A stretch of 56,129 bases of DNA. It comes from Oscillibacter sp. (GTDB lineage Bacteria; Bacillota; Clostridia; Oscillospirales; Oscillospiraceae). The stretch spans positions 14,367 through 70,495 of the forward strand of contig JAAVHD010000015.1 of the NCBI GenBank assembly GCA_014799915.1, written 5' to 3'. Shown in pieces: positions 1 to 11,387 of the stretch (position 1 is the first letter of the stretch; the number at the start of each line of letters is the position of its first letter). The position numbers and the translations under genes are program-made. A model generated the notes under the pieces. That model ran no database searches. It had not been told where the DNA came from and was given only the letters and a program-made list of their open reading frames with translations.

Positions 1-1461
1 AAGCTGGGCACCCTGGCACCGGACGCCTTTGACAGCACGGCGGAGGTCGTGGCTTTCGCGGAGCAGATCAACAAGCAGTTTACGCTTGCCGGCACCAACG
101 CCCAGGGGGCGCAGGCCGCCATGCTCCAGCTGACCCAGGCTATGTCCTCCGGTGTGCTGCGGGGCGAGGAATTAAATTCCGTACTGGAACAGGCCCCCAC
201 CATAACCCGCGCCATTGCCGATTACATGGGCGTGACCATCGGCGAAATGCGTGAGCTGGCCAGCGAGGGTCAGATCACGGCTGACGTGGTAAAGGCCGCC
301 ATCTTCGATGCGGCGGAGGAGACCAACGCGGCCTTTGATTCTATCCCGATGACCTTCTCCCAGGCTATGACGATGGTGAAAAACGAAGGGCTCAACGCCC
401 TGCGCCCAGTCCTGGAGGAGCTGAACAACTTCCTCAACAGCGACATCGGGCGGGACGCGCTGAACGGCTTTATCTCGGCGGTCCGCATGGGCGGGGAAAT
501 GCTGCTATGGCTGCTCCAGCTGGTGGAAAGCGGCGCGGCGTTCATTCAGGAGCACTGGGACACGGTTTCCACGCTTCTGATTGCCGGCGCGATAGCTATT
601 GCCGCGGTAATGACTTATTCAGCCATAAACTCTGCAATCGCATGGGCAACGATGAATCCAGTGCTCCTGCTCATTGTTGGCAGCATCGTCCTGGTGATCT
701 ACATGGCCCGGCAGATGGGGGCTACCTGGGAGGATATTTGCGGATTTATCGGAGGCGTTCTATACGAGCTGTACGCATTCGGCAACAACCTTATTGCCGA
801 CGTCTGGAATCGTCTGGCTATGTTCGCCGAGTTCTTTGCAAACTTCCTAAACCATCCAATAACTGCGACTGCCCACTTGATTGCTGATTGGGCCGATTGG
901 GTTCTAAGTGTCATACAGAGCCTGGCCAGCGCCATAGACGCCGTGTTCGGCAGTGATTTTGCCAGCGCGGTCAACAACTGGCGCTCCGGCGTGCAGGACT
1001 GGGCAAATTCCTTCGGTGAGAACGAGATTAAGATCCAGCGTATGGAGAAGATCCAGTACAACGACGCCTGGGATCGCGGCTCTGAAATGGGCCGCAGCGT
1101 TGGCGCCGCGCTGGACAACTTCAATATCTCCGACTTCATGAGCGGCATGGGCGGCAGCGGCTTTGATTATGACGCGCTGGCGGCGGCCTCCGGACTCAAC
1201 AGTACCCTCTCCGACATCGCCGGGGATACCAAGGCCATCCGCAACAGCGTGGCCCTCTCTGAGGAGGATATCAAACTGCTGGTGGACATGGCGACCCGGG
1301 AGTATGTGAACAACATCAACCTGACCGCCCAGACGCCCATCATTAACGTCACCGGCCAGAACACCGGCGACACTGAAATGGACAAGCGAGCCCTGGCCGA
1401 CGCCATCAAGGACATCCTGATCGAGGAGGCCGCCAGCCATACCGATCTTGCCTACACATAA
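1..1461 (+). CDS. Phage tail tape measure protein, C-terminal part (5-prime end outside window)
   Basis: Frame 1 is open from base 1; the listed start at 49 is an internal GTG. Contains a tape-measure-like segment AQGAQAAMLQLTQAMSSGVLRGEELNSVLEQAP and a hydrophobic central region. Sits directly upstream of baseplate genes. Confidence 0.85.
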   Translation, partial: KLGTLAPDAFDSTAEVVAFAEQINKQFTLAGTNAQGAQAAMLQLTQAMSSGVLRGEELNSVLEQAPTITRAIADYMGVTIGEMRELASEGQITADVVKAAIFDAAEETNAAFDSIPMTFSQAMTMVKNEGLNALRPVLEELNNFLNSDIGRDALNGFISAVRMGGEMLLWLLQLVESGAAFIQEHWDTVSTLLIAGAIAIAAVMTYSAINSAIAWATMNPVLLLIVGSIVLVIYMARQMGATWEDICGFIGGVLYELYAFGNNLIADVWNRLAMFAEFFANFLNHPITATAHLIADWADWVLSVIQSLASAIDAVFGSDFASAVNNWRSGVQDWANSFGENEIKIQRMEKIQYNDAWDRGSEMGRSVGAALDNFNISDFMSGMGGSGFDYDALAAASGLNSTLSDIAGDTKAIRNSVALSEEDIKLLVDMATREYVNNINLTAQTPIINVTGQNTGDTEMDKRALADAIKDILIEEAASHTDLAYT

Positions 1462-1470
1462 GGAGGCAGC

Positions 1471-2211
1471 ATGGAGAACAAATACGGCCTCTACATAGCC
1501 CACGAGGGAACGGTGGTACGCCTCCCGGTGAACCCGGAGAGCTATTCCATCACAAAGGACAACGACAACGGCAATTATAACGTCCTGGGCGTGGGCCCCA
1601 TCATGATCCCCCGGACGCCGAAGCTCCAGACAGCCGCCTGGTCCGGCCTCCTGCCGGGCCGGGCGGATCTGGGGGCGGTCCTGACGGCGGGAGCCTTCCA
1701 GCCGCCCAAGTTTTACATAGACTTCCTACAGACTGCCATGGACGAGAAGTGGATCGTCCGATTTGTAGCCAACCGCTATACGGAGGACGGCTCCCCCATT
1801 TTCGATACCAACATGGAGGCCATTGTCACCCGCTTCAAATCAGAGGAGCGGGGCGGGGAAACCGGGGATTTCTATTACGACATCGCCCTCAGCGAGTACC
1901 GGGACTACTCCCCGAAGACGGTCAAGCTCCAGCCATCGGCGGAAGTGGGCCAGCCCGTAACCGCCACGTCGGAGACCACCCGCTCCATTCCCCAGGGCCA
2001 ACTGACCGTAGGGCAGGCCGTGACGGTCAACGGGGACTGCTTTTACAATAGCTACGGCGGAGAGCCCCACGCGACCCTCTCCGGCTTTCGCGGTCAGATA
2101 TCCCGGATCGTCACTACCGACCCGCAGCGGCCCTATCCCTACCACATCGCTACCGAGAGCGGCGGCGCGAAGGGCTGGGTCAAGGCCAGTCAGATCCAGG
2201 TGGTGAGCTGA
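1471..2211 (+). CDS. Phage tail/baseplate protein in the XkdP position (SH3-like C-terminus, no obvious LysM)
   Basis: ATG preceded by aaggagg, 9 nt after the tape measure stop. Its stop overlaps the next start (TGATG at 2209-2213). C-terminal ...GGAKGWVKASQIQVV looks SH3-like. Confidence 0.55.
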   Translation: MENKYGLYIAHEGTVVRLPVNPESYSITKDNDNGNYNVLGVGPIMIPRTPKLQTAAWSGLLPGRADLGAVLTAGAFQPPKFYIDFLQTAMDEKWIVRFVANRYTEDGSPIFDTNMEAIVTRFKSEERGGETGDFYYDIALSEYRDYSPKTVKLQPSAEVGQPVTATSETTRSIPQGQLTVGQAVTVNGDCFYNSYGGEPHATLSGFRGQISRIVTTDPQRPYPYHIATESGGAKGWVKASQIQVVS

Positions 2212-3188
2212 TGGTATACGAGCTGATTATTCTGGAGAAGCGCACCGGCAACGCATGGGACGCGGCTCCGCAGGTTCAGAGTGTCACCTACACCACCAAC
2301 CGCACCGGCTCCCCCGGCACGCTGAAATTTACCGTGAACGCCTCCGGGGGCCTCTCCTTTGTGGAGGGCGACCCCGTCCGGTTCTCTGTGGACGGCCAGC
2401 TCATTTTCCTGGGCTGGGTGTTCACCAAAAGCCGGGACCGCTACGCCGTCATCGAGGTAACCTGCTACGACCAGCTCCGCTATCTGAAGGCCAGCGCCAG
2501 CTACTGCTTTACCGGCCGCACGGCGGGAGAGATCATCACCGAGATCGCTCAGGACTTCCAGCTGCAGGTGGGGAATCTGGACGATACCGGATATCCTATT
2601 CCTACTCTCATCATGGAGGAAAAGAGCTGCCTGGACATCATTTCCACCGCCCTCCAGCGCACGCTGCTGGCCACAGGGACGCTGTACACCTTCTTCGACG
2701 ACGGCGGCACGCTGTCCCTCCGGGAGGCGGGGGCCATGGTGGCAGAGGGCGTGGTGGGCACCTGCTCACTGCTGACGGACTACCAATACAAGACCGACAT
2801 CGACCAGCAGACCTACAACTCCATCAAGCTTTCGCGGCCCAATGAGGCCACGGGCCGGGCGGACGTGTTCCAGGTCATGGACAGCGGCAACATCAGCAGA
2901 TGGGGCCTTCTCCAGCTCTACCAGACGGTAGACGAGGCCATGAACGACGCCCAGGTAGAATCCCAGGCCCGGGCCATGCTCAAATATCACAACCGCCGCT
3001 TCCGCACGTTAAAAGTGCAAGCGCTTGGCATTTTGGGTCTGCGGGCGGGTCAGATGCTGATGATGGATGTGGACAACCTGGGGGACATCAACCTCCACAA
3101 CCTGGTCCTGCTGGAGCGGGTGACCCATACGTTCAAGAACGATCTGCACACAATGGAGTTTGAAGTCCAGGAGCTGGGGGTGGAATAA
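2211..3188 (+). CDS. Phage tail hub / late-control-D-like protein (XkdQ position)
   Basis: 325 aa, translationally coupled to the upstream gene. Size and position match XkdQ/gpD-like proteins of PBSX-type tails. Confidence 0.6.
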   Translation: MVYELIILEKRTGNAWDAAPQVQSVTYTTNRTGSPGTLKFTVNASGGLSFVEGDPVRFSVDGQLIFLGWVFTKSRDRYAVIEVTCYDQLRYLKASASYCFTGRTAGEIITEIAQDFQLQVGNLDDTGYPIPTLIMEEKSCLDIISTALQRTLLATGTLYTFFDDGGTLSLREAGAMVAEGVVGTCSLLTDYQYKTDIDQQTYNSIKLSRPNEATGRADVFQVMDSGNISRWGLLQLYQTVDEAMNDAQVESQARAMLKYHNRRFRTLKVQALGILGLRAGQMLMMDVDNLGDINLHNLVLLERVTHTFKNDLHTMEFEVQELGVE

Positions 3189-3190
3189 GC

Positions 3191-3712
3191 GTGGATCTAA
3201 CCGATGTCATGCGTCAGATGATGCAGCAGTCCATGGAGGGCTACGGCCTGTCCGACATGACCATAGGGACGGTCACCAGCGCGAAGCCGCTGAAGGTCAA
3301 GATCCGGGAGGGCATGGCGGACATCCCCCAGGAAGCCCTCCGCCTGACGGCGGCGGTGATCGAAAAGAAGATCCCCATTCTGGAGCATGAGCACATTACC
3401 GCCGGTTTCCGTCACGACCACGAGCTGCCGGACCTTTCTCATAGCCACAGCGGCGAGGAAGGCGATACCGGGCCGGCCCTGGAGGGAGAACTACGGACGG
3501 GCACCGCCCTGGACCCGGATGCCTATACGTCAGATCGGCGGCTGCTGAAGAAGGAGATCATCTGCTACGAGGACGGAAAGCCGCTCCCCGTGAAGGACGG
3601 ATACATCATCCTCAACCGCGCCCTGGAGACCGGGGACAAGGTCCTGATGCTCCGCGTCATGCGGGGGCAGCAGTTTATCATCCTTTCCCGCGTTTTTGAG
3701 AAGGAGGCATAG
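3191..3712 (+). CDS. Baseplate protein, XkdR-like (DUF2577-type)
   Basis: GTG start 2 nt after the previous stop. 173 aa with N-terminal MDLTDVMRQ...GTVTSAKPLKVKI typical of XkdR-like proteins. Gene order supports the call. Confidence 0.55.
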   Translation: MDLTDVMRQMMQQSMEGYGLSDMTIGTVTSAKPLKVKIREGMADIPQEALRLTAAVIEKKIPILEHEHITAGFRHDHELPDLSHSHSGEEGDTGPALEGELRTGTALDPDAYTSDRRLLKKEIICYEDGKPLPVKDGYIILNRALETGDKVLMLRVMRGQQFIILSRVFEKEA

Positions 3713-3714
3713 AT

Positions 3715-4125
3715 ATGGCCATGCTGCCGCAATCGAATATCGACCTTTCCCAGGGGATCGTCTTCCAGGACCAGCCCTCCCTTACCTGGATCGCCGACCC
3801 GGTGACCAACCGGCTCCGCGGCCGGGGCGATAACTGGGTGGCCGTCCGGCAGGCGGTGGAGGTCATCGTCAACGTGGAGCGCTTCAAGTGGCAGATCTAC
3901 ACGCCGAACTTCGGCACCGACTATGACGGCCTGTTGGGCACCGAGCCCGGATACGCCGCCTCTGAGCTGCGCCGGAGACTGGAGGATGCTTTCCTGCCGG
4001 ACAACCGGATACTGGGGATCAGAGACTATGCGTATACGTTCAAGGATGTAAGCCTGACCGTCACCTTCACCGTGGATACGGTGTTCGGCGACGTAACCAG
4101 CGGCATGGAGGTGAAACTGGCGTGA
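3715..4125 (+). CDS. Baseplate wedge protein, XkdS-like (gp25/W-like, DUF2634-type)
   Basis: aaggagg RBS upstream of ATG 3715. 136 aa, and its stop overlaps the GTG start of the baseplate J gene (GTGA at 4122-4125). Confidence 0.55.
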   Translation: MAMLPQSNIDLSQGIVFQDQPSLTWIADPVTNRLRGRGDNWVAVRQAVEVIVNVERFKWQIYTPNFGTDYDGLLGTEPGYAASELRRRLEDAFLPDNRILGIRDYAYTFKDVSLTVTFTVDTVFGDVTSGMEVKLA

Positions 4126-5234
4126 TCGACCTGAGCAAAAAGACCTACCGCAATATTTTGCAGGCCCAGCTGGACCGGGTGCCCAACTCCCTGGATAAGC
4201 GGGAGGGCTCCATGATCCAGACCGCCCTCGGGGCGGGCGCTTACTCCCTGGAGGAGTTCTACCTGGAGCTGGATCAGGTCCAGCGGGGCGCGTACTTCCA
4301 GACTGCCGTGGGGCAGGATCTGGAGTACCTGTCCGTGCTGGCCAATGTCCAGCGGTATCCCGCGTCCCCTGCGGTCCGGCTGGGCGTGTTCAATATCGAC
4401 GTGCCCATCGGCTCCCGGTTTTCCACCATCGACGGCGCGGACAGCGTCAACTTCATCGCCACGGAGAAGATCAGCGACGGACGCTTCCAGATGACCTGTG
4501 AGACCCCGGGAGCCATCGGCAATCAGTACACCGGCCCCATCCTGCCCATCACCTACATACAGGGCCTGACCTCGGCGGAACTGACGGACATCCTGATAGC
4601 CGGGGACGACACGGAGAGCGACGACGACCTGCGCAAGCGGGCTATCGACGCCCTGAACGAGCAGCCCTTCGGCGGCAACGTGGCGGACTACAAGCGGGTG
4701 GTGCTGGCTATCGACGGCGTGGGCGGCCTCCAAGTGTACCCCACTTGGGACGGAGGCGGCACGGTGAAGCTCAGCATCATCGGCGCGGACTGGATGCCGG
4801 CCTCCGAGCAGTTGGTGGAGACGGTGCAGAACACCGTTGACCCGCCGCCCGACCAGGGCCTGGGCTACGGCACCGCCCCCATCGGGGCGAAGGTGACCGT
4901 CACCACGCCGGAAACAGTGGAGATCAACATCTCCGCCGCGCTGGCCGCCGGCCCCGGCTACACCACCGCCCAGCTGGAAGGACCGGTAAAGCAGGCCATA
5001 GACGACTACCTCCTGGACATCCGCCAGGAGTGGGACAAACCGGAGGAATCCGGCCTGACCCACTATTCCTCCTGGGTATACGCCGCCCGGGTGACGGCGG
5101 CGATCCTGTCGGTGCAGGGCGTCGTCAACGTCACCGGGCTGACCATCAACGGCTCGGCGGCGGATCTCCAGCTCACGGAGGACGGCCTGCTCCAGCAGGT
5201 GCCGGTCCTGGGGGAGGTAACGGTCCATGCCTGA
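4122..5234 (+). CDS. Baseplate J-like protein (XkdT-like)
   Basis: 370 aa. N-terminus KTYRNILQAQLDRVPNSLDKREGSMIQTALGAGAYSLEEFY is typical of the Baseplate_J family. Gene order supports the call. Confidence 0.8.
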   Translation: MIDLSKKTYRNILQAQLDRVPNSLDKREGSMIQTALGAGAYSLEEFYLELDQVQRGAYFQTAVGQDLEYLSVLANVQRYPASPAVRLGVFNIDVPIGSRFSTIDGADSVNFIATEKISDGRFQMTCETPGAIGNQYTGPILPITYIQGLTSAELTDILIAGDDTESDDDLRKRAIDALNEQPFGGNVADYKRVVLAIDGVGGLQVYPTWDGGGTVKLSIIGADWMPASEQLVETVQNTVDPPPDQGLGYGTAPIGAKVTVTTPETVEINISAALAAGPGYTTAQLEGPVKQAIDDYLLDIRQEWDKPEESGLTHYSSWVYAARVTAAILSVQGVVNVTGLTINGSAADLQLTEDGLLQQVPVLGEVTVHA

Positions 5235-6108
5235 GACGCAGATCTGCAAATATTACCCGCCATGGTTCCGGCGCATCCTGGACTTCCAGGCCCTGTGCCA
5301 GACGGAGAAGGCGGAGCTGGACGCCATGGCGGAGGCCATGGACCAGATCCACAAGAATCTCTTTGTCCAGACCATGGACGAGGGCACCACGGCCCAGTGG
5401 GAGGTCATCCTCCGCATCCTGCCCACGCCGGACGAGACGCTGGAGTTCCGCCGCCTGCGGGTGCAGAACCGGCTCTCCCTGCGCCCGCCGTTTACCCTGA
5501 TCTTCCTGCGGGAGAAGCTGGATCTGCTCTTTGGCCCCGGCAACTACGAGGTGGAGGTGGACTATCCCAACTACACCCTGTATATCGAGGCCCCGGCGGA
5601 TAAGCAGGCGTATTTCACCGAGGTGTACGCCCTGCTGAACATCATCAAGCCCTGCCACATCGTCTATATCGCCCGGCCCAGGCTGGACAGCACGCTGCTC
5701 CTGTCGGAGCGGATCAGCCGGGGGCAGATGCTCTACAACTACATCCTTGGTTCGTGGCGGCTGGGGGAGAAGCCCTTCGCCACCTTCGAGGAACAGGAGG
5801 TTTTGAAATTGGAAACTATGCCCAGCGTTACCCCGGCGCTTTTGAACCAGACCGCCGCCTTTGTGGCCTCCGACGTGGCGTCGGTCCGCGTCAACGGGGA
5901 GATCGTCATCACCGCGCTGGCCCGCTCTACTTCCGGGGATGTGGGCAGCGTATCTTACACCATTCGGCGGAGCCAGACGGAGGAGGTCACCCTTTCGGAG
6001 CTGCTGGACAAGGATGGAAACGTGCTGTCCTCCAGTGCGGTGGTGATCCCGGTGCTGGAGGAGACGATGATGCTGCGGCACAGCTTCACGGTAAAGGAGG
6101 GAACGTGA
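5227..6108 (+). CDS. Phage tail protein, XkdU/YmfQ-like (P2 gpI-type, DUF2313)
   Basis: 8-nt overlap with the baseplate J gene. N-terminal YYPPWFRRILDFQALCQTEKAELD motif resembles YmfQ/XkdU proteins. Confidence 0.6.
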   Translation: MPETQICKYYPPWFRRILDFQALCQTEKAELDAMAEAMDQIHKNLFVQTMDEGTTAQWEVILRILPTPDETLEFRRLRVQNRLSLRPPFTLIFLREKLDLLFGPGNYEVEVDYPNYTLYIEAPADKQAYFTEVYALLNIIKPCHIVYIARPRLDSTLLLSERISRGQMLYNYILGSWRLGEKPFATFEEQEVLKLETMPSVTPALLNQTAAFVASDVASVRVNGEIVITALARSTSGDVGSVSYTIRRSQTEEVTLSELLDKDGNVLSSSAVVIPVLEETMMLRHSFTVKEGT

Positions 6109-6109
6109 C

Positions 6110-7717
6110 ATGGCGGAGAAACCTATCAAGACGCCGCTTCCGGCGGATCTGCCGGAGGACTGGAATATAGGCCAGACCGTAGCCCCTGACGGGACCGCTG
6201 TGGGCCTGACGGAGCAGCACGGGTATAACTATCTCATGGCGGCGGTGAACCGCGCCCAGAGGGGCGTGAACGAGGTCAATGAGGCCTTTGGGACGGTGAG
6301 CGGGAAGCGGACATGCCGCTTTGTTGTGGGAACGTCTACTGCTGGATGGACAGAGGCGGACTGTGACTATCTGTGCGATGGTGTGGATGATCAGGTGGAG
6401 ATTCAGCAGGCAATCAATACGCTTCCGGAAGGCGGCGGGGAAATCGTACTGCTTTCGGGAAACTATCAGTTGTCAGCGGATGTAAGTATTGCAGGGAAGA
6501 TTGAAAATCTCTCGATTACAGGGGAACCGGGCAGCACTATTCTTAGCGGCGGCCGTATAACTACTAATAACAGTCAGTCGCCTGTTGAGTTTTACATTTC
6601 TGGCATTGTCTTCAAAAAAAGCAGCGTGTCTGCGTATAATACATATCTTTCTGTAAAAAATTGTTCCTTCGAAAATTCCAATGTTTACTTTTATCAGACA
6701 CAATCTGATATTCCTGGAGAGTTTTTGTGCATTGGAAATCGGTTTTTGCTGAATGATGCGTCTGTAGAAAGTACGCAAATATACTGCTACAACAGTACGA
6801 ATACTCCAAATACAAACATTGTGATCTCTAATAATACGATCATTACGAACGAAGTGCTTGCATCCAGAAGTATCCTTGTCCGAGTTGGTGGACCAAGTGG
6901 CGGTGGAGGATTGTATACCATTAGCGGAAATGCGATACGTTGTATTTCGAAGTGCTATCTATTTTTACAGGCCCCTGGTACCGTTACAAACAATTTCTTC
7001 CATAATTGTGACGCTGATCTGTACGTTGGCGGGAATTTGGTGGGAAACCAATTCTTTGATTGTGATGCACGGGTAGATGCCGTGACTTTAAACACCAACA
7101 ACGTAAAGTGGTGCGCATCTGTATCTGGCAATACGGTGGAGAATGGGACAATTTCAGTGTCTGGCAATGTGGAAGTTACAGGAAATGCGGTTAATGCGGG
7201 CAGCACGGAAAAAGAATACGCAATCCGGCTTAGAAAGTTAGGGAGTAACGCTGCGGAAGATCAATTTCCGGTGGTGGTGGGGAATTATGTAGCCAATGGG
7301 AAATGCGGAATCCTCCTGGAAGAAGCCAATTCTTCTGGTGGAAATAATAATTGCAAAAATGCCATTGTCAATAGCAATCGCATCTACGGTTCACAGACCC
7401 CTATCAAAATTGGGGAGCATTGGAGCGGTTGCATGGTAACCGACAATCTGTTTACCACTGGCTCCATCGAGGACAATGGTACAGACAACATCGTCCGCTT
7501 CAACTCCGATGACCCCAGCACAGGCGGCGGCACCGCTGGTGTAACCACCTTCAACGGGCGCAGCGGGAAAGTAGTCCCCGGAAACGATGACTACACCGCG
7601 CCGATGGTCGGCGCGATCCCGGCCTCCGCTGTGAAGGACATCCAATCCATGACCCAATCGCAATACGACGCGCTGGCCTCGAAAAACGCCACAACGCTGT
7701 ATCTGATCAAGGAGTAG
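6110..7717 (+). CDS. Tail fibre/spike with right-handed beta-helix-like central domain
   Basis: Starts 1 nt after the previous stop. The high-GC conserved N-terminus and the C-terminus (GVTTFNGRSGKVVPGNDDYTAPMVGAIPAS) flank a low-GC core. The core is rich in N/S/T/G with short periodic repeats (ISGN, VSGN, VTGN). Confidence 0.65.
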   Translation: MAEKPIKTPLPADLPEDWNIGQTVAPDGTAVGLTEQHGYNYLMAAVNRAQRGVNEVNEAFGTVSGKRTCRFVVGTSTAGWTEADCDYLCDGVDDQVEIQQAINTLPEGGGEIVLLSGNYQLSADVSIAGKIENLSITGEPGSTILSGGRITTNNSQSPVEFYISGIVFKKSSVSAYNTYLSVKNCSFENSNVYFYQTQSDIPGEFLCIGNRFLLNDASVESTQIYCYNSTNTPNTNIVISNNTIITNEVLASRSILVRVGGPSGGGGLYTISGNAIRCISKCYLFLQAPGTVTNNFFHNCDADLYVGGNLVGNQFFDCDARVDAVTLNTNNVKWCASVSGNTVENGTISVSGNVEVTGNAVNAGSTEKEYAIRLRKLGSNAAEDQFPVVVGNYVANGKCGILLEEANSSGGNNNCKNAIVNSNRIYGSQTPIKIGEHWSGCMVTDNLFTTGSIEDNGTDNIVRFNSDDPSTGGGTAGVTTFNGRSGKVVPGNDDYTAPMVGAIPASAVKDIQSMTQSQYDALASKNATTLYLIKE

Positions 7718-7720
7718 GCC

Positions 7721-8614
7721 ATGCTGAAATTAGGGGATCAGAGTATTTCCGCCGCCTACCTCGGCGGGGTGAAAATCAAGAAGGCGTATCTGGGGGAAGC
7801 GGTCGTTTTCGACGTGTCGGAGCCGCCTGTCCCAACCTATACCATCACCGCCTCCATCGACCCCGCCGGGAGCGGAACGGTGTCCGGGGCCGGTACCTAC
7901 CAGGCGGGCGATACCGTCACGATCACCGCCGCGCCGGGGGATGGCTACCAGTTCACTGGCTGGCAGGAAAATGGGGTAACGGTCAGCGCGGACGCGGCGT
8001 ATACCTTCACCGTAACGGGGGACCGGACACTGACGGCGGTGTTCGAGGAGGTCAAGGCCAGCAGACTGCCTGCCGGGTATACGGAAGTTGAGTACATTCA
8101 AAACGCAAATACAAGTTCGTATATCAATACAGGAAAAGCGCTTCTCAATTCTACTCTTACTATGGAGATATCTGCTCCGGAGTGGAAATCCAGTTCTACG
8201 GCAAAATACTTGTTCAATTGCAACAGCGTATTTAATCTTTACGCACAATCCTCTAATATCAAGTTACTTCATTCATCCGGCTCAGCAAATACCTACACAG
8301 TCGGGGCAATGTCTACTGGCAAAATAAAAATCGATTGTTCCGGTAAATCGTTTACATTAAACGGAAACACCACTACTCTTGCGGCTAATAACAACGGTGC
8401 AAATATGACATTCCCCAACAAAACCGCCTCTAGCTCTTTGATCGTAAGAATATATTATGTAAAAAGCGTTAGAGCTGGCGATACATCCGCGACGTTTAAT
8501 TTTGAACTGATCCCGTGCATCAATCCAAGCGGTGTTGTCGGACTGTATGATTTAACAAATTCAGCATTTATACCGCCAACTGCTGGTACATTTATTGCTG
8601 GCCCAGCCGTCTAA
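7721..8614 (+). CDS. Second tail fibre / receptor-binding protein with an InlB-B-repeat-like (Listeria-Bacteroides repeat) domain
   Basis: Segment YTITASIDPAGSGTVSGAGTYQAGDTVTITAAPGDGYQFTGWQENGVTV...TLTAVF matches that repeat type. The C-terminal half is low-GC. Located between fibre 1 and the holin. Confidence 0.5.
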   Translation: MLKLGDQSISAAYLGGVKIKKAYLGEAVVFDVSEPPVPTYTITASIDPAGSGTVSGAGTYQAGDTVTITAAPGDGYQFTGWQENGVTVSADAAYTFTVTGDRTLTAVFEEVKASRLPAGYTEVEYIQNANTSSYINTGKALLNSTLTMEISAPEWKSSSTAKYLFNCNSVFNLYAQSSNIKLLHSSGSANTYTVGAMSTGKIKIDCSGKSFTLNGNTTTLAANNNGANMTFPNKTASSSLIVRIYYVKSVRAGDTSATFNFELIPCINPSGVVGLYDLTNSAFIPPTAGTFIAGPAV

Positions 8615-8758
8615 TCCACAACATCAAAGGAGATGAAAGGACAGTGTTCATCCTCTGCGCCAACAAAAAGCAACTGATCCTCCGACAGCCTCACAGAGGC
8701 AGAAAACAACGAGAATATTTCTATTAGGAAGAATAAATACGTCGAAAAGGAGTGCATC

Positions 8759-9238
8759 ATGGAACACGTAAACAGATTCAAGGCGGCAATCGCCGCAATC
8801 ACCGGCGCTCTGACAGCCCTGTGGGGCTGGATGGGATGGCTTGTGGTGGGGTGGATCGTGTGCATGGCGGCGGACTACCTCACAGGGTCCATGGCCGCAG
8901 CAAAGGCTGGAGAGTGGAACAGCGCCAGGGCTCGGGAGGGCATCTGGCACAAGTGCGGAATGATCGTGGTGGTTCTGGTAGCTGCCGGAGTAGATCTGCT
9001 TCTGGAGGCCGCACTGGAGAATCTGCCGGGGGTTCAGCTTCCGTTTGCCTTTGGCGGCATCGTGTGCCCAATGGTGCTGGTTTGGTACATCATCACAGAG
9101 CTGGGCAGTATCGCAGAGAATGGCGTATCGTTGGGTGCGCCAATGCCGGGCTGGCTGGTGAAGCTGCTGAAAATTGGGAAAGACGCGGTGGACTCGGCGG
9201 GAGAGAAGATCGTGGGGGAACGTGATGGTAAGCAGTAA
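8759..9238 (+). CDS. Phage holin (Phage_holin_4_1 / toxin-secretion-lysis holin type)
   Basis: aaggag RBS. 159 aa with several hydrophobic helices and a conserved YIITELGSIAENG-like motif. Immediately precedes and overlaps the endolysin gene. Confidence 0.75.
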   Translation: MEHVNRFKAAIAAITGALTALWGWMGWLVVGWIVCMAADYLTGSMAAAKAGEWNSARAREGIWHKCGMIVVVLVAAGVDLLLEAALENLPGVQLPFAFGGIVCPMVLVWYIITELGSIAENGVSLGAPMPGWLVKLLKIGKDAVDSAGEKIVGERDGKQ

Positions 9239-9887
9239 AGATCCTCTTGCAGTCGCCAGAGGCGAGCTGGGGAATACCGAGAGCCCCGCCGGGAGCAACC
9301 GGACCAAGTACGGCAAGTGGATGGGGCTGGACGGCCAGCCCTGGTGTATGTCGTTCGTCCAGTGGTGTTTCGATCAGGTAGGCGCGAAGCTGCCCCTGAA
9401 GACAGGCTCCTGCGGCGAGCTGATGCGGGCCGCGCAGAAGGCCGGGTGCTGGGTGACGCGGGACTTTCTGCCGAGGGACGTGGTGATCTACGATTTTCCC
9501 GGCGGTGCTGCTACAGACCACTGTGGAATCGTGGAGTTCCCGCTTCCGGACTACGGCGTGCAGGCCATTGAGGGAAACACCAGCGAGTCCGGGAGCCAGA
9601 GCAACGGCGGTATGGTCTGCCGGAAGAACAGGCCGATGAAGTACATTGTAGGGGCCGTAAGGCCGCAGTTTGACGAGGAGACGGAGGACAACGATATGGC
9701 GTATTACAAGACACTGAATGACGTGCCGGAGAGTTATCGGGAAACCATCCGTAAGCTGATGGAGAAGGGTGCGCTGAAGGGACACAGCGACCCGGACCCC
9801 AGCAGGCTGGATGACAATGTGCTCAATATCTCGGATGATATGTGCCGGGTCCTCACCGTGCTGGATAATCTGGGAAAGCTGGACTAA
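9225..9887 (+). CDS. Endolysin, CHAP-domain peptidoglycan hydrolase
   Basis: The ATG at 9225 overlaps the holin end by 14 nt; the listed ORF start 9174 is probably too early. Carries the CHAP-like motif SNRTKYGKWMGLDGQPWCMSFVQWCF with downstream H and N residues. Has a separate C-terminal domain. Confidence 0.75.
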   Translation: MVSSKDPLAVARGELGNTESPAGSNRTKYGKWMGLDGQPWCMSFVQWCFDQVGAKLPLKTGSCGELMRAAQKAGCWVTRDFLPRDVVIYDFPGGAATDHCGIVEFPLPDYGVQAIEGNTSESGSQSNGGMVCRKNRPMKYIVGAVRPQFDEETEDNDMAYYKTLNDVPESYRETIRKLMEKGALKGHSDPDPSRLDDNVLNISDDMCRVLTVLDNLGKLD

Positions 9888-9915
9888 ATAAACGGCAGGG
9901 CAGAGCAATGATACG

Positions 9916-9957
9916 AAAAAGTAGCCTCCACAGGACTTTCCTGCGGAGGCTACTTTA
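9916..9957 (+). terminator. Rho-independent terminator closing the phage lysis cassette
   Basis: Hairpin gtagcctcc-a-cagga-ctt-tcctg-c-ggaggctac (9921-9953) followed by tttat. Confidence 0.55.
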
Positions 9958-10071
9958 TAATAGCTTATTGATGTTTGGTCCTCCATACTGACTGATAATC
10001 AACGAGGCCAGCTTGGGATTGGTGTTTTTGATCTTGACCGGGTACTCCAGACGCTTCTCATATACAAACAT
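9955..10071 (-). pseudogene. cotJC: 5-prime stump of cotJC (Mn-catalase-family spore coat protein); only about 33 homologous codons remain
   Basis: The ATG overlaps the stop of the upstream ORF (TAATG). It translates MFVYEKRLEYPVKIKNTNPKLASLIISQYGGPN then INKLL-stop. This matches the conserved CotJC N-terminus (B. subtilis MWVYEKKLQYPVKV...QYGG). Full-length CotJC is about 190 aa. Confidence 0.7.
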
Positions 10072-10529
10072 TACTGCTTACCTCCTTCCGACAGTTCCCA
10101 GGGCCAGGGATCGTTCAGCCAGGTGTACCCGGCTGCGGTGACGGAGGTCTGCTGCAGGGGGCCATAGGCGGCCTCGTAGCGCTTGCGGCCCTCTTTGGCG
10201 AGGTTTACATAATCAACGTAGAGCGCCAGGGCCTCCTTGTCATTCTGGTGAGTATCTAGGTACAGTCCCAGCTCCGTTATGGTAAAGCCCAGGGCCATCA
10301 ACTCACACAGGGCATTGTTGGGGCAGTTCATTTTGCTCTTTACCGCCCGGAAGAAGGGCAGGTTCAGTCCAGGGAACAATGTACCGGCGGCCAGGGCCTG
10401 ATTCTGGTCATAGCGCTCGGGATTGTCGTTCTGCATGGAAATATAGGGGAACACCATATTGGCGCATTTGCCGGGCAGGCTGCCTTCCATGACGCCGCAG
10501 GTGCCGGGATTTGGATTGGGATTCTCCAA
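10071..10529 (-). CDS. CotJA-CotJB fusion spore coat-associated protein
   Basis: TTG start with aaggagg 9 nt upstream. The N-terminal half is CotJA-like (ANMVFPYISMQ...RYDQNQALAAGTLFPGLNLPF). The C-terminal half is CotJB-like (MALGFTITELGLYLDTHQNDKEALALY...YGPL...WLNDPWPWE). Confidence 0.75.
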   Translation of the reverse strand: MENPNPNPGTCGVMEGSLPGKCANMVFPYISMQNDNPERYDQNQALAAGTLFPGLNLPFFRAVKSKMNCPNNALCELMALGFTITELGLYLDTHQNDKEALALYVDYVNLAKEGRKRYEAAYGPLQQTSVTAAGYTWLNDPWPWELSEGGKQ

Positions 10530-10580
10530 GGGAAGATTCCTCCTTCAGGTGTAGTCGGGACGCAGGGGCGCCCTCAGACC

Positions 10581-10606
10581 ATCCTATGCCAAAGGAAGAA
10601 AGAGGT
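10581..10606 (-). promoter_or_regulatory. Candidate mother-cell sigma (sigK/sigE-like) promoter for the cotJ operon
   Basis: On the minus strand, AC-16 nt-CATAGGAT resembles the sigK-type consensus AC-N16/17-CATAnnnT(A). It lies about 50 nt upstream of the start. Weak, pattern match only. Confidence 0.25.
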
Positions 10607-10661
10607 GCGCTTGCGGCATAGTTTTCCCCCCGCCGGAATATGGTAGGAAGGGGGTGATCCT

Positions 10662-11387
10662 TTGTTTATCACATTCAAAAAATGGACGGCGCTGTATGTG
10701 GCGACGATTTTGGGATTATTTCTGGTTTTTGCCGCGATCCTGTGGCAGGGAAGCGCCGTCAATGCGTCAAAGAACCTGGAGCTGGAGCAGGGGGAGCCAT
10801 TCATCCTGGTAATCGACCCGGGCCATGGAGGCTTTGATCCCGGCGCGGTGGCGGCAGACGGAACGGCGGAGTCCCAGATCAATCTGGCAATCGGCCTGCA
10901 GATGGAGGAAATCGCCCGCCTGCTGGGGATCGAGACGGATATGACCCGGCGGGAGGACGTTTCCACCGAGAGCGATCCTTCCGCCGCCATCCGGCAGCGG
11001 AAGAACTCCGACCTGCAAAACCGGGTGGCCCAGGTCAACGATATCTCCGGCGGCGTACTGGTGAGCCTCCATCAAAACAGCTTGCCCCAAGTGCCCAGCG
11101 TCCATGGCGCACAGGTGTTTTACAGCGAGTCTGCGGGAAGTCAGGAGCTGGCGGAAGCGGTCCAGGCAGCGCTGAATGAAACGATCAATGACCGTGCCAA
11201 GGAAGTAAAGGCGGCGGGCAGTGGCGTGTACCTGCTGAAAAAAGCGGAGCTCCCCGCCATTCTGGTGGAATGCGGGTTCCTATCCAACGGGGAGGAGACG
11301 GCGCTGCTGAACACGCAGGATTATCAGACCCGATTGGCCCTGACGATTCTGGCATCGGTACTGGAGCATCTCTCCCAGCCCGAATAA
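10662..11387 (+). CDS. cwlD: N-acetylmuramoyl-L-alanine amidase, germination-specific CwlD type
   Basis: TTG start with aggaagggggtga RBS and an N-terminal membrane anchor. Amidase_3 motifs VIDPGHGGFDPGAV, SLHQNS and ECGFLSN are present. About 240 aa and adjacent to cotJ. Confidence 0.7.
   Translation: MFITFKKWTALYVATILGLFLVFAAILWQGSAVNASKNLELEQGEPFILVIDPGHGGFDPGAVAADGTAESQINLAIGLQMEEIARLLGIETDMTRREDVSTESDPSAAIRQRKNSDLQNRVAQVNDISGGVLVSLHQNSLPQVPSVHGAQVFYSESAGSQELAEAVQAALNETINDRAKEVKAAGSGVYLLKKAELPAILVECGFLSNGEETALLNTQDYQTRLALTILASVLEHLSQPE

Follow-up and report, generated by a model that had tools for sequence, protein, structure and literature searches.

A prophage end within the spore-coat gene cotJC of an Oscillibacter genome and a putative large serine recombinase at the far junction

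The 56,129-nucleotide (nt) stretch of Oscillibacter sp. DNA analyzed here (the window) corresponds, as reverse complement, to bases 1-56129 of contig k119_12739 (70,495 nt) in ENA assembly ERZ27267592, and on the minus strand of the window an open reading frame (ORF) begins as the spore-coat gene cotJC and ends in phage DNA. We propose, with a probability of about 0.9, that window positions 1 to 9979 are one end of a temperate prophage with a PBSX-type contractile tail, and that this prophage, which is at least 32 kb long (there is a gap between the two contigs that carry it), was inserted in cotJC by its own 488-amino-acid (aa) large serine recombinase. A preliminary description of the window had placed a prophage within cotJC; both junctions, the matching host flanks and the intact gene obtained by joining the halves agreed with that placement.

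Both halves of cotJC and an empty site

On the minus strand of the window, a fused cotJA-cotJB ORF of 152 aa (10071 to 10529; PF11007 for CotJA and PF12652 for CotJB) overlaps the ATG of cotJC with its stop codon in the sequence TAATG (10073-10069), and a 38-aa ORF (9955 to 10071) follows, whose translation is MFVYEKRLEYPVKIKNTNPKLASLIISQYGGPNINKLL and then a stop. These coordinates, like those of a hairpin at 9921-9953, were the same as in the preliminary description. The peptide after TAATG, which had been taken for the CotJC N-terminus, matched the Pfam family Mn_catalase (PF05067) from positions 1 to 32 with its own residues 1 to 32 (E = 1.1e-6, 28.3 bits versus a cut-off of 27), and 32 of its first 33 residues were identical to those of CotJC in L002, an uninterrupted allele described below. 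The preliminary description had counted 33 host codons followed by 5 unrelated ones; the CotJC start was right, and the count needed correction. Host sequence ends after the second base of codon 31, the codon in which the crossover falls; residue 33 is already altered (N where the host has D), and the element supplies the last six codons. In NCBI the stump is entered as MBD5153802.1, 'hypothetical protein' HDT15_01670 [Oscillibacter sp.], from a metagenome-assembled genome (MAG). No further cotJC-like sequence was found elsewhere in the 56,129 nt of the window.

The missing half was reached through the 90%-identity cluster of intact CotJC, in which a 150-aa gene call (P0253) corresponded to residues 49-198, and then through the contigs that carry this call. 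One of these, L257, is contig k119_61402 (14,977 nt) of the same assembly, ERZ27267592, as the window; L258 also carries P0253. Along L257 there are, in order, small phage ORFs with a repressor-like helix-turn-helix gene (RstR/DicA-like), a 285-aa ORF, a recombinase gene, the 3' part of cotJC, and host genes. The recombinase (MBD5154329.1, 488 aa, L257 6126-7592) has the domains of a large serine integrase, namely Resolvase (PF00239), Recombinase (PF07508) and Zn_ribbon_recom (PF13408), and the motif AAYIRVSTDDQ; against NCBIfam it gave sub-threshold CcrB and XisF matches only. The element thus has a site-specific recombinase of its own adjoining a junction, the gene ending 29 nt before the core of the left attachment site, attL. 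At that distance past the recombinase end begin cotJC codons 31-198, which start with GTATGGAGG-TCCAGACGGCGAACTC and run to a stop at 8127. The preliminary description had looked to the far junction for the missing cotJC codons next to a recombinase gene, and this was the arrangement observed, with the codons directly downstream of the gene. The host genes that follow (GH31, YaaD, L32, YceD, and LuxS) are those to the right of cotJC in L002, and L257 was 95.9% identical to L002 5150-9325. Both contigs belong to one MAG, which holds the stump as HDT15_01670 and the L257 proteins as HDT15_04380 to HDT15_04435.

The empty site is provided by L002 (Logan SRR11425456), a phage-free contig of the same species, in which a CotJA-CotJB protein of 152 aa, 100% identical to that of the window, is followed by an intact 198-aa cotJC, GH31, YaaD, and L32. 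Positions 1-5165 of L002 aligned to window 15137-9973 with 97.2% identity, ending at 9973, where the preliminary description had put the loss of homology, and the alignments of L002 to the window (1-5165) and to L257 (5150-9325) share only a 16-nt core. When the right attachment site of the window, attR, through ...GTATGGAGG was joined to L257 from TCCAGAC..., the product was a 597-nt ORF of 198 aa; the protein was 100% identical to L002 CotJC, and all 18 nucleotide differences between the two genes were synonymous (18 synonymous, 0 non-synonymous). The coding sequence of a sporulation gene is therefore interrupted by the element, with the stump in the window, the 3' part on L257 and an empty site in the same species, and precise excision, carried out computationally, restored an intact ORF. 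The join gave the intact ORF that the preliminary description had asked for, with a protein equal to that of the uninterrupted allele, and the related uninterrupted cotJ operons on which its comparison depended exist, in the same species among others (L002, L259-L264). The exact intact CotJC protein was present on 7 contigs, all from other samples. A search with full-length CotJC protein as query returned only intact homologues and no attL, and the best 80 loci of a scan of genome contigs for cotJC were all intact (Oscillospiraceae, with Ca. Pelethomonas at 89%).

Attachment sites and other insertions in cotJC

Comparison of attR, attL and the empty site, attB, placed the core common to attB and the phage site, attP, at 9980 to 9988 of the minus strand (GTATGGAGG), and the phage half-site of attR (the P' arm, ACCAAACATCAATAAGCTAT), which gives the stump its last codons and stop, at 9960 to 9979, also on the minus strand. 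The attB site reads ...ATCAGTCAGTATGGAGG-TCCAGACGGCGAACTC, attR reads ...CAGTATGGAGG-ACCAAACATCAATAAGCTAT and then the hairpin, attL reads ...GTAGTCTGACGGTGTATGGAGG-TCCAGACGGC, and the reconstructed attP, of 42 bp, is GTAGTCTGACGGTGTATGGA-GG-ACCAAACATCAATAAGCTAT. The base after GTATGGAGG is A, the phage-type base, in attR (window 9979) and T, the host-type base, in attL and the empty sites, so that the exchange took place within those 9 nt. With a few changes the P' arm also occurs in L005, L006/7/9, and L008/10-14, and it is dyad-related to the P arm of L257 (11/20), to that of L017 (14/20), and to the attP of L253. About GG, 11 of 20 positions match as a dyad in this attP and 14-15 of 20 in those of the relatives L253 and L192; many relatives' attP sites have their dyad centers at GG, and the attP/attL pairs of the relatives L192/L188 and L183/L024 diverge exactly after GG. 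Because of this dyad symmetry and of the divergence after GG, the central dinucleotide is most likely the GG at window 9981-9980, with which the Gly31 codon begins. As a set, the sites are of about 40-50 bp, with an imperfect dyad about a 2-bp crossover and hybrid attL and attR. Exact and degenerate att-arm patterns searched in IMG/VR gave only L017/L018 plus chance matches, and the arm-plus-hairpin pattern had no match in the Joint Genome Institute metagenomes.

We propose that the recombinase would join attP to an attB that is the stretch of cotJC encoding QYGGPDG, and that the strands most likely cross over at the GG in the Gly31 codon. In the lysogen, cotJA-cotJB would then be followed by a 38-aa stump closed by the stop codon and the hairpin of the phage arm, and a promoterless 3' part of cotJC would lie at least 32 kb away, behind the recombinase gene. 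Excision of any timing would rebuild a perfect cotJC, because excision by serine recombinases is conservative. On this model k119_12739 and k119_61402 would be the two ends of one element, and the L257 recombinase would have made the insertion. The phage may well be functional, since all its late genes and the repressor-like gene are full-length ORFs.

The same junction was found in three assemblies (L001, L004, and L005), L005 having an arm variant with TATATCAATAAGC in place of AACATCAATAAGC, and in the window's species 3 of 5 contigs were occupied. The junction is present in Logan run SRR11425463. In a sister species (CotJA-CotJB 88% identical; it includes MAG GCA_021768185.1), the same nucleotide position holds one of two other elements, and by our own tally, which includes similar places not displayed, just 1 of the 24 contigs read had an intact gene. 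One of these elements does not look like a phage; its first gene encodes a protein of 2,464-2,591 aa with no Pfam match or only LPD23 (L006 10616-18010, L009 2412-9806, and L007 2398-10173), and its att arm is similar. The second is another phage, which carries genes for Gp58, CHAP, and holin proteins. On the element side, all three types have similar arms, reading ACCA[A/T]AC[A/T][T/C]CAA[T/C]AA[G/A]CTA and then a hairpin, which in the two other types stands at the place equivalent to that of the window. Giant ORFs (1,997 and 2,276 aa) were also seen near attL-type junctions in L016 and L017/L018, which had no recombinase gene in the adjoining 10 kb; the junction of L017/L018 has an Mrr/SWIM nuclease-like gene beside it.

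Among viral contigs in IMG/VR, 34 carry pieces of cotJC, and by our count 23 of the pieces start near codon 30. Immediately upstream of 20 of these 23, on the same strand, is a large serine recombinase of 479-484 aa, and the L257 recombinase was 43-57% identical to members of this family. A profile of the codon-30 recombinases found more than 514 relatives in IMG/VR. Among the best 80, about 53 could be classified by their downstream sequence and about 21 abut a piece of cotJC (about 18 a 3' piece, and 3 a 5' stump in inverted orientation); many others of the 80 have free attP sites, whose dyads are centered on GG or CC. The recombinase genes of L181, L197, and L233 abut the 5' cotJC stump on the opposite strand, with CC at the center and the att site inverted relative to the gene. 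GenBank phages included no close relative of the recombinase (the best, a metagenomic virus, was 40% identical), and had cotJC pieces only on unannotated fecal fragments.

Codon 31 is one of several break points in cotJC. At about codons 61-64 (after TDIGTE), a distant recombinase lineage, about 24% identical, stands immediately upstream (L035, L046, and L048). At about codon 136 (after DLAA) there is a conserved element arm, TGG(T/C)(A/G)CGA...TGTAA(G/A)(G/A)ACAAC, that is, TGGYRCGA...TGTAARRACAAC; this break occurs in L003 (4700-5122), which belongs to the window's species. A further break, at about codon 175 (after FQRFGE), was seen in the proteins P0249, P0251, and P0254. In all, breaks other than that of the window were found at loci L003, L035, L037, L039, L040, L042-L049, L245, and L246 and in proteins P0249, P0251, P0252, P0254, and P0257. 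Pieces of cotJC comprising codons 29-136 and 62-136 have element flanks on both sides, which means that one cotJC gene can hold two elements. Each break point observed lies within one of the most conserved motifs of the protein (QYGGPDG, TDIGTEE, DLAAEQ, and FQRFGEG).

The late-gene arm and the cotJ neighborhood

By its Pfam matches, the phage DNA of the window (1 to 9979, plus strand) makes up the right arm of the prophage, with the late genes; it starts within the tape measure gene, whose C-terminal part it contains, and ends with the lysis cassette. The products encoded in positions 1-9887 are a tape measure protein, of which the C-terminal 470 aa of a 661-aa gene starting left of the window are present (49 to 1461; PF20155, TMP_3, E = 1.6e-36); a YqbQ/XkdQ-like baseplate hub protein, a marker of PBSX-type tails (2211 to 3188; PF24032, YQBQ, E = 9e-103); a DUF2577 protein; a sheath initiator; a baseplate J-like protein (4122 to 5234; PF04865, E = 1.3e-55); a Gp48-like protein; a tail fiber; a repeat protein; a holin (8759 to 9238; PF05105, Phage_holin_4_1, E = 5e-33); and a CHAP-domain endolysin, for which the public gene call is 220 aa (9225 to 9887, converted from L001 10643-11305; PF05257, CHAP, E = 3.8e-6) and the longest ORF starts at 9174. 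All of the genes with coordinates given here are on the plus strand. The 14.4 kb to the left of the window encode, in order, small and large terminase, portal, head morphogenesis, capsid, head-tail, sheath, tube (DUF2001), and chaperone proteins and the start of the tape measure, so that the 24.4 kb of phage DNA on contig k119_12739 comprise the complete late region, from terminase through lysis without obvious breaks. YqbQ/XkdQ, an XkdM-like tube (DUF2001), sheath, DUF2577, baseplate J, and tail assembly chaperone genes are present in the conserved order of a PBSX-type contractile tail module. The YqbQ-type genes confirm the PBSX/skin assignment made in the preliminary description; it is a statement of kinship of the module only, and says nothing of the element being defective.

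In IMG/VR the tail module has relatives of up to 95% aa identity, the closest of which part from it before the lysin and contain no cotJC piece; they would be either inserted elsewhere or incomplete. A 403-aa head protein, P0271 (MBD5153091.1), encoded on a 61,219-nt contig labeled Oscillibacter sp., is in the same 90% cluster as the Pa193_gp24-like protein of the window phage, and its accession falls in the range of the window MAG; this genome may therefore contain another prophage, related to the one described here.

The strong hairpin (9921 to 9953, 33 nt) that the preliminary description had noted beside the stump end separates the lysin gene from the att site. Folding confirmed it, and also found it where a simple terminator scan had overlooked it: on the minus (cotJ) strand it has -31.9 kcal/mol, with a z-score of -8.75, and is followed by UUUUU, and on the plus strand it has -28.9 kcal/mol. 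It could stop transcription from both sides.

On the host side, the fused CotJA-CotJB protein had 2932 homologues, and nearly all of the 120 listed have the CotJA and CotJB domains together; a fused ORF is thus usual in this clade, and not an error. Divergent to cotJ is a host gene for a CwlD-like amidase (10662 to 11387, plus strand; PF01520), whose best NCBIfam match was spore_cwlD at 181.6 bits, under the cut-off of 221.55; it neighbors cotJ likewise at phage-free loci, and, as the one nearby sign of a sporulation setting, fits a spore-forming host without being proof of one. The region upstream of cotJ (window 10530-10661) contains AC-N16-CATAGGATG, which by eye resembles, without fully matching, the B. 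subtilis sigma-K/sigma-E -10 motif CATAnnnTA. The 90%-identity cluster that includes the window stump has 1067 sequences, and the 15 listed are 34-75 aa long, some with the annotation 'hypothetical protein' or 'manganese containing catalase'; calls as short as these in the CotJC cluster are probably mostly prophage junctions. No tRNA genes or Rfam families were found in the whole window.

Timing of excision, known systems, and meaning

Several observations weigh against the proposal that a prophage with its own recombinase splits cotJC and would restore it on leaving. The ends of k119_12739 and k119_61402 do not overlap, and the early and replication region and the physical continuity of the element were not seen. 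Neither an intact CotJC (as the exact protein) nor an empty site was found in ERZ27267592, and the excised form, attP, was not found in that sample either. The position of the cut within the 9-nt identity comes from dyad symmetry, which for the phage's own attP is only 11/20. We identified no recombination directionality factor, and the 7.6 kb next to the recombinase in L257 have 0 sites of the sigma-K consensus versus 0.1-0.2 expected, an expectation too low for the count to be informative; the consensus, moreover, is that of B. subtilis, which may not apply to this host.

If the split gene is as we propose, the question becomes when it is rebuilt, and here the account we hold to be somewhat more likely than not is that cotJC is simply a tolerated landing site, a dispensable gene with a motif-coding sequence that does not vary between hosts, and that a lysogen would lack an intact cotJC until induction or loss of the phage. 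That every break point lies in one of the most conserved motifs, that several unrelated elements with at least two distant recombinase families target the gene, and that lysogenic and non-lysogenic strains occur together in the samples of one study all argue for such a passive role, as does the hairpin after the arm, which would shield the phage from cotJ transcription. It leaves unexplained, however, why sporulation genes recur as targets in the literature, and sequence data alone cannot separate it from the account that follows.

A tentative alternative, to which we give less credence, is a developmental switch like those of skin and SPbeta, in which a mother-cell sigma factor turns on the directionality factor or the recombinase, so that excision occurs only in the mother cell, cotJC is rebuilt and expressed with cotJA-cotJB, and the spore keeps the prophage. 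The cotJ operon of B. subtilis is sigma-E-dependent and expressed in the mother cell. The architecture here is like that of the tested cases, in that there is what would be, by analogy with B. subtilis cotJ, a mother-cell coat gene, an element with a large serine recombinase at its end, and halves that join perfectly in frame; the high occupancy (for the sister species about 23 of the 24 contigs read, for this one 3 of 5) suggests a low cost, and the split allele has no non-synonymous change. According to published reviews, nearly all such elements interrupt genes of the mother cell and leave them during sporulation (PMC6957869). Against a switch stand the count of zero sigma-K sites near the recombinase given above, the fact that the elements are polymorphic and apparently complete phages and not fixed remnants, and the existence of cotJC copies cut by two elements at once, which would require coordinated excision. 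In addition, CotJC-type catalases are dispensable for coat assembly in B. subtilis and C. difficile (PMC11222575), and selection for rebuilding the gene may be weak. A broader proposal combines two claims: that cotJC of gut Oscillospiraceae and their relatives is a multi-site landing pad (at least four positions, at codons of about 31, 61-64, 136, and 175, of which two or more are each served by a separate serine-recombinase lineage, and with two elements per gene possible), and that the elements are excised in the mother cell, the coat catalase of these never-cultured bacteria then depending on one or several coordinated rearrangements. As a joint claim we hold it to be doubtful.

Quite improbable, in our judgment, is a domesticated defective element, a PBSX/skin-like remnant or a tailocin without infectious phage. 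The PBSX-like tail module would suit such an element, as would the early region being outside what the two contigs show, but the genes for terminase, portal, capsid, head-tail, sheath, tube, baseplate, fiber, holin, lysin, repressor-like protein, and recombinase are all full-length ORFs, and the arm variant in L005 together with empty sites in the same species points to recent, repeated integration. That the stump is a chimeric join or a stray 5' copy with an intact cotJC elsewhere is hardly credible even for metagenomic contigs, given an identical junction in three separately assembled data sets, a complementary 3' half with matching downstream host synteny, nucleotide-exact breaks at a site reused in other species, and the failure, reported above, to find the exact intact protein in ERZ27267592.

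Intervening elements of this general kind are known, among them skin in sigK, SPbeta in spsM, vfbin, vrin, gin, and yin (PMC4191935, PMC5025042, PMC5595907, PMC6957869, PMC10747680). The case described here resembles SPbeta in spsM of Bacillus subtilis (SprA recombinase and SprB directionality factor; PMC4191935, PMC5499854) in being a prophage within what is, for cotJC by analogy, a mother-cell spore-envelope gene. In both, the gene for a large serine recombinase lies at an end of the element, and conservative excision restores the ORF, here in silico. It differs from SPbeta (134 kb) in its target, cotJC, in its host, a member of the Oscillospiraceae in the Clostridia, in being a contractile-tail phage of at least 32 kb, and in being known from sequence alone. 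With skin in sigK (SpoIVCA; B. subtilis and C. difficile, PMC5025042) it shares a PBSX relationship, a large serine recombinase, and a split sporulation gene, whereas skin is defective, fixed in its lineage, and interrupts an essential regulator, and the cotJC element looks complete, is polymorphic, and lies in a structural or enzymatic coat gene. Like vfbin (spoVFB), vrin (spoVR), gin (gerE, PMC5595907), and yin (yabG, PMC10747680), it has its own site-specific recombinase and would lie inside a mother-cell sporulation gene; those elements differ from it in being mostly small and non-phage or degraded, and in that their excision is experimentally proven.

The preliminary description had left the novelty of cotJC as a target to be confirmed, and the gene proves to be a published one: a 2021 preprint (Kohm et al., bioRxiv 10.1101/2021.11.22.469490), with reference to the in-silico list of Abe et al. 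(2013, Mol Microbiol 90:415), names cotJC, with gerE, yaaH, and yhbH, as a gene of frequent phage or transposon integration. In C. difficile R20291, the gene adjoining prophage phi027, CDR20291_1465, is a CotJC-like manganese catalase (PMC11222575). The searchable full-text literature gave no description of the Oscillospiraceae case, of the recombinase family and its att sites, or of the multiple break points. The split of cotJC is thus a new case of an established phage habit of inserting in sporulation genes, with a target gene already published, and what is modestly new is the scale, with many elements, several sites, and a large uncharacterized integrase family in gut Clostridia.

With both junctions, a recombinase, attP, attB, and an isogenic empty site in hand, the case joins a small set of phage-split sporulation genes, and its setting is the uncultured gut Clostridia, in which sporulation drives transmission from host to host. 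For catalogues used in genome engineering, it adds a large, uncharacterized family of serine integrases with a known natural attB of about 40 bp; for annotators, it means that many of the 34-75-aa 'hypothetical' CotJC stumps, in a single 90% cluster of 1067 sequences, can be recognized as prophage junctions. If excision is in fact timed to sporulation, developmental gene rearrangement would reach well past Bacillus and Clostridioides.

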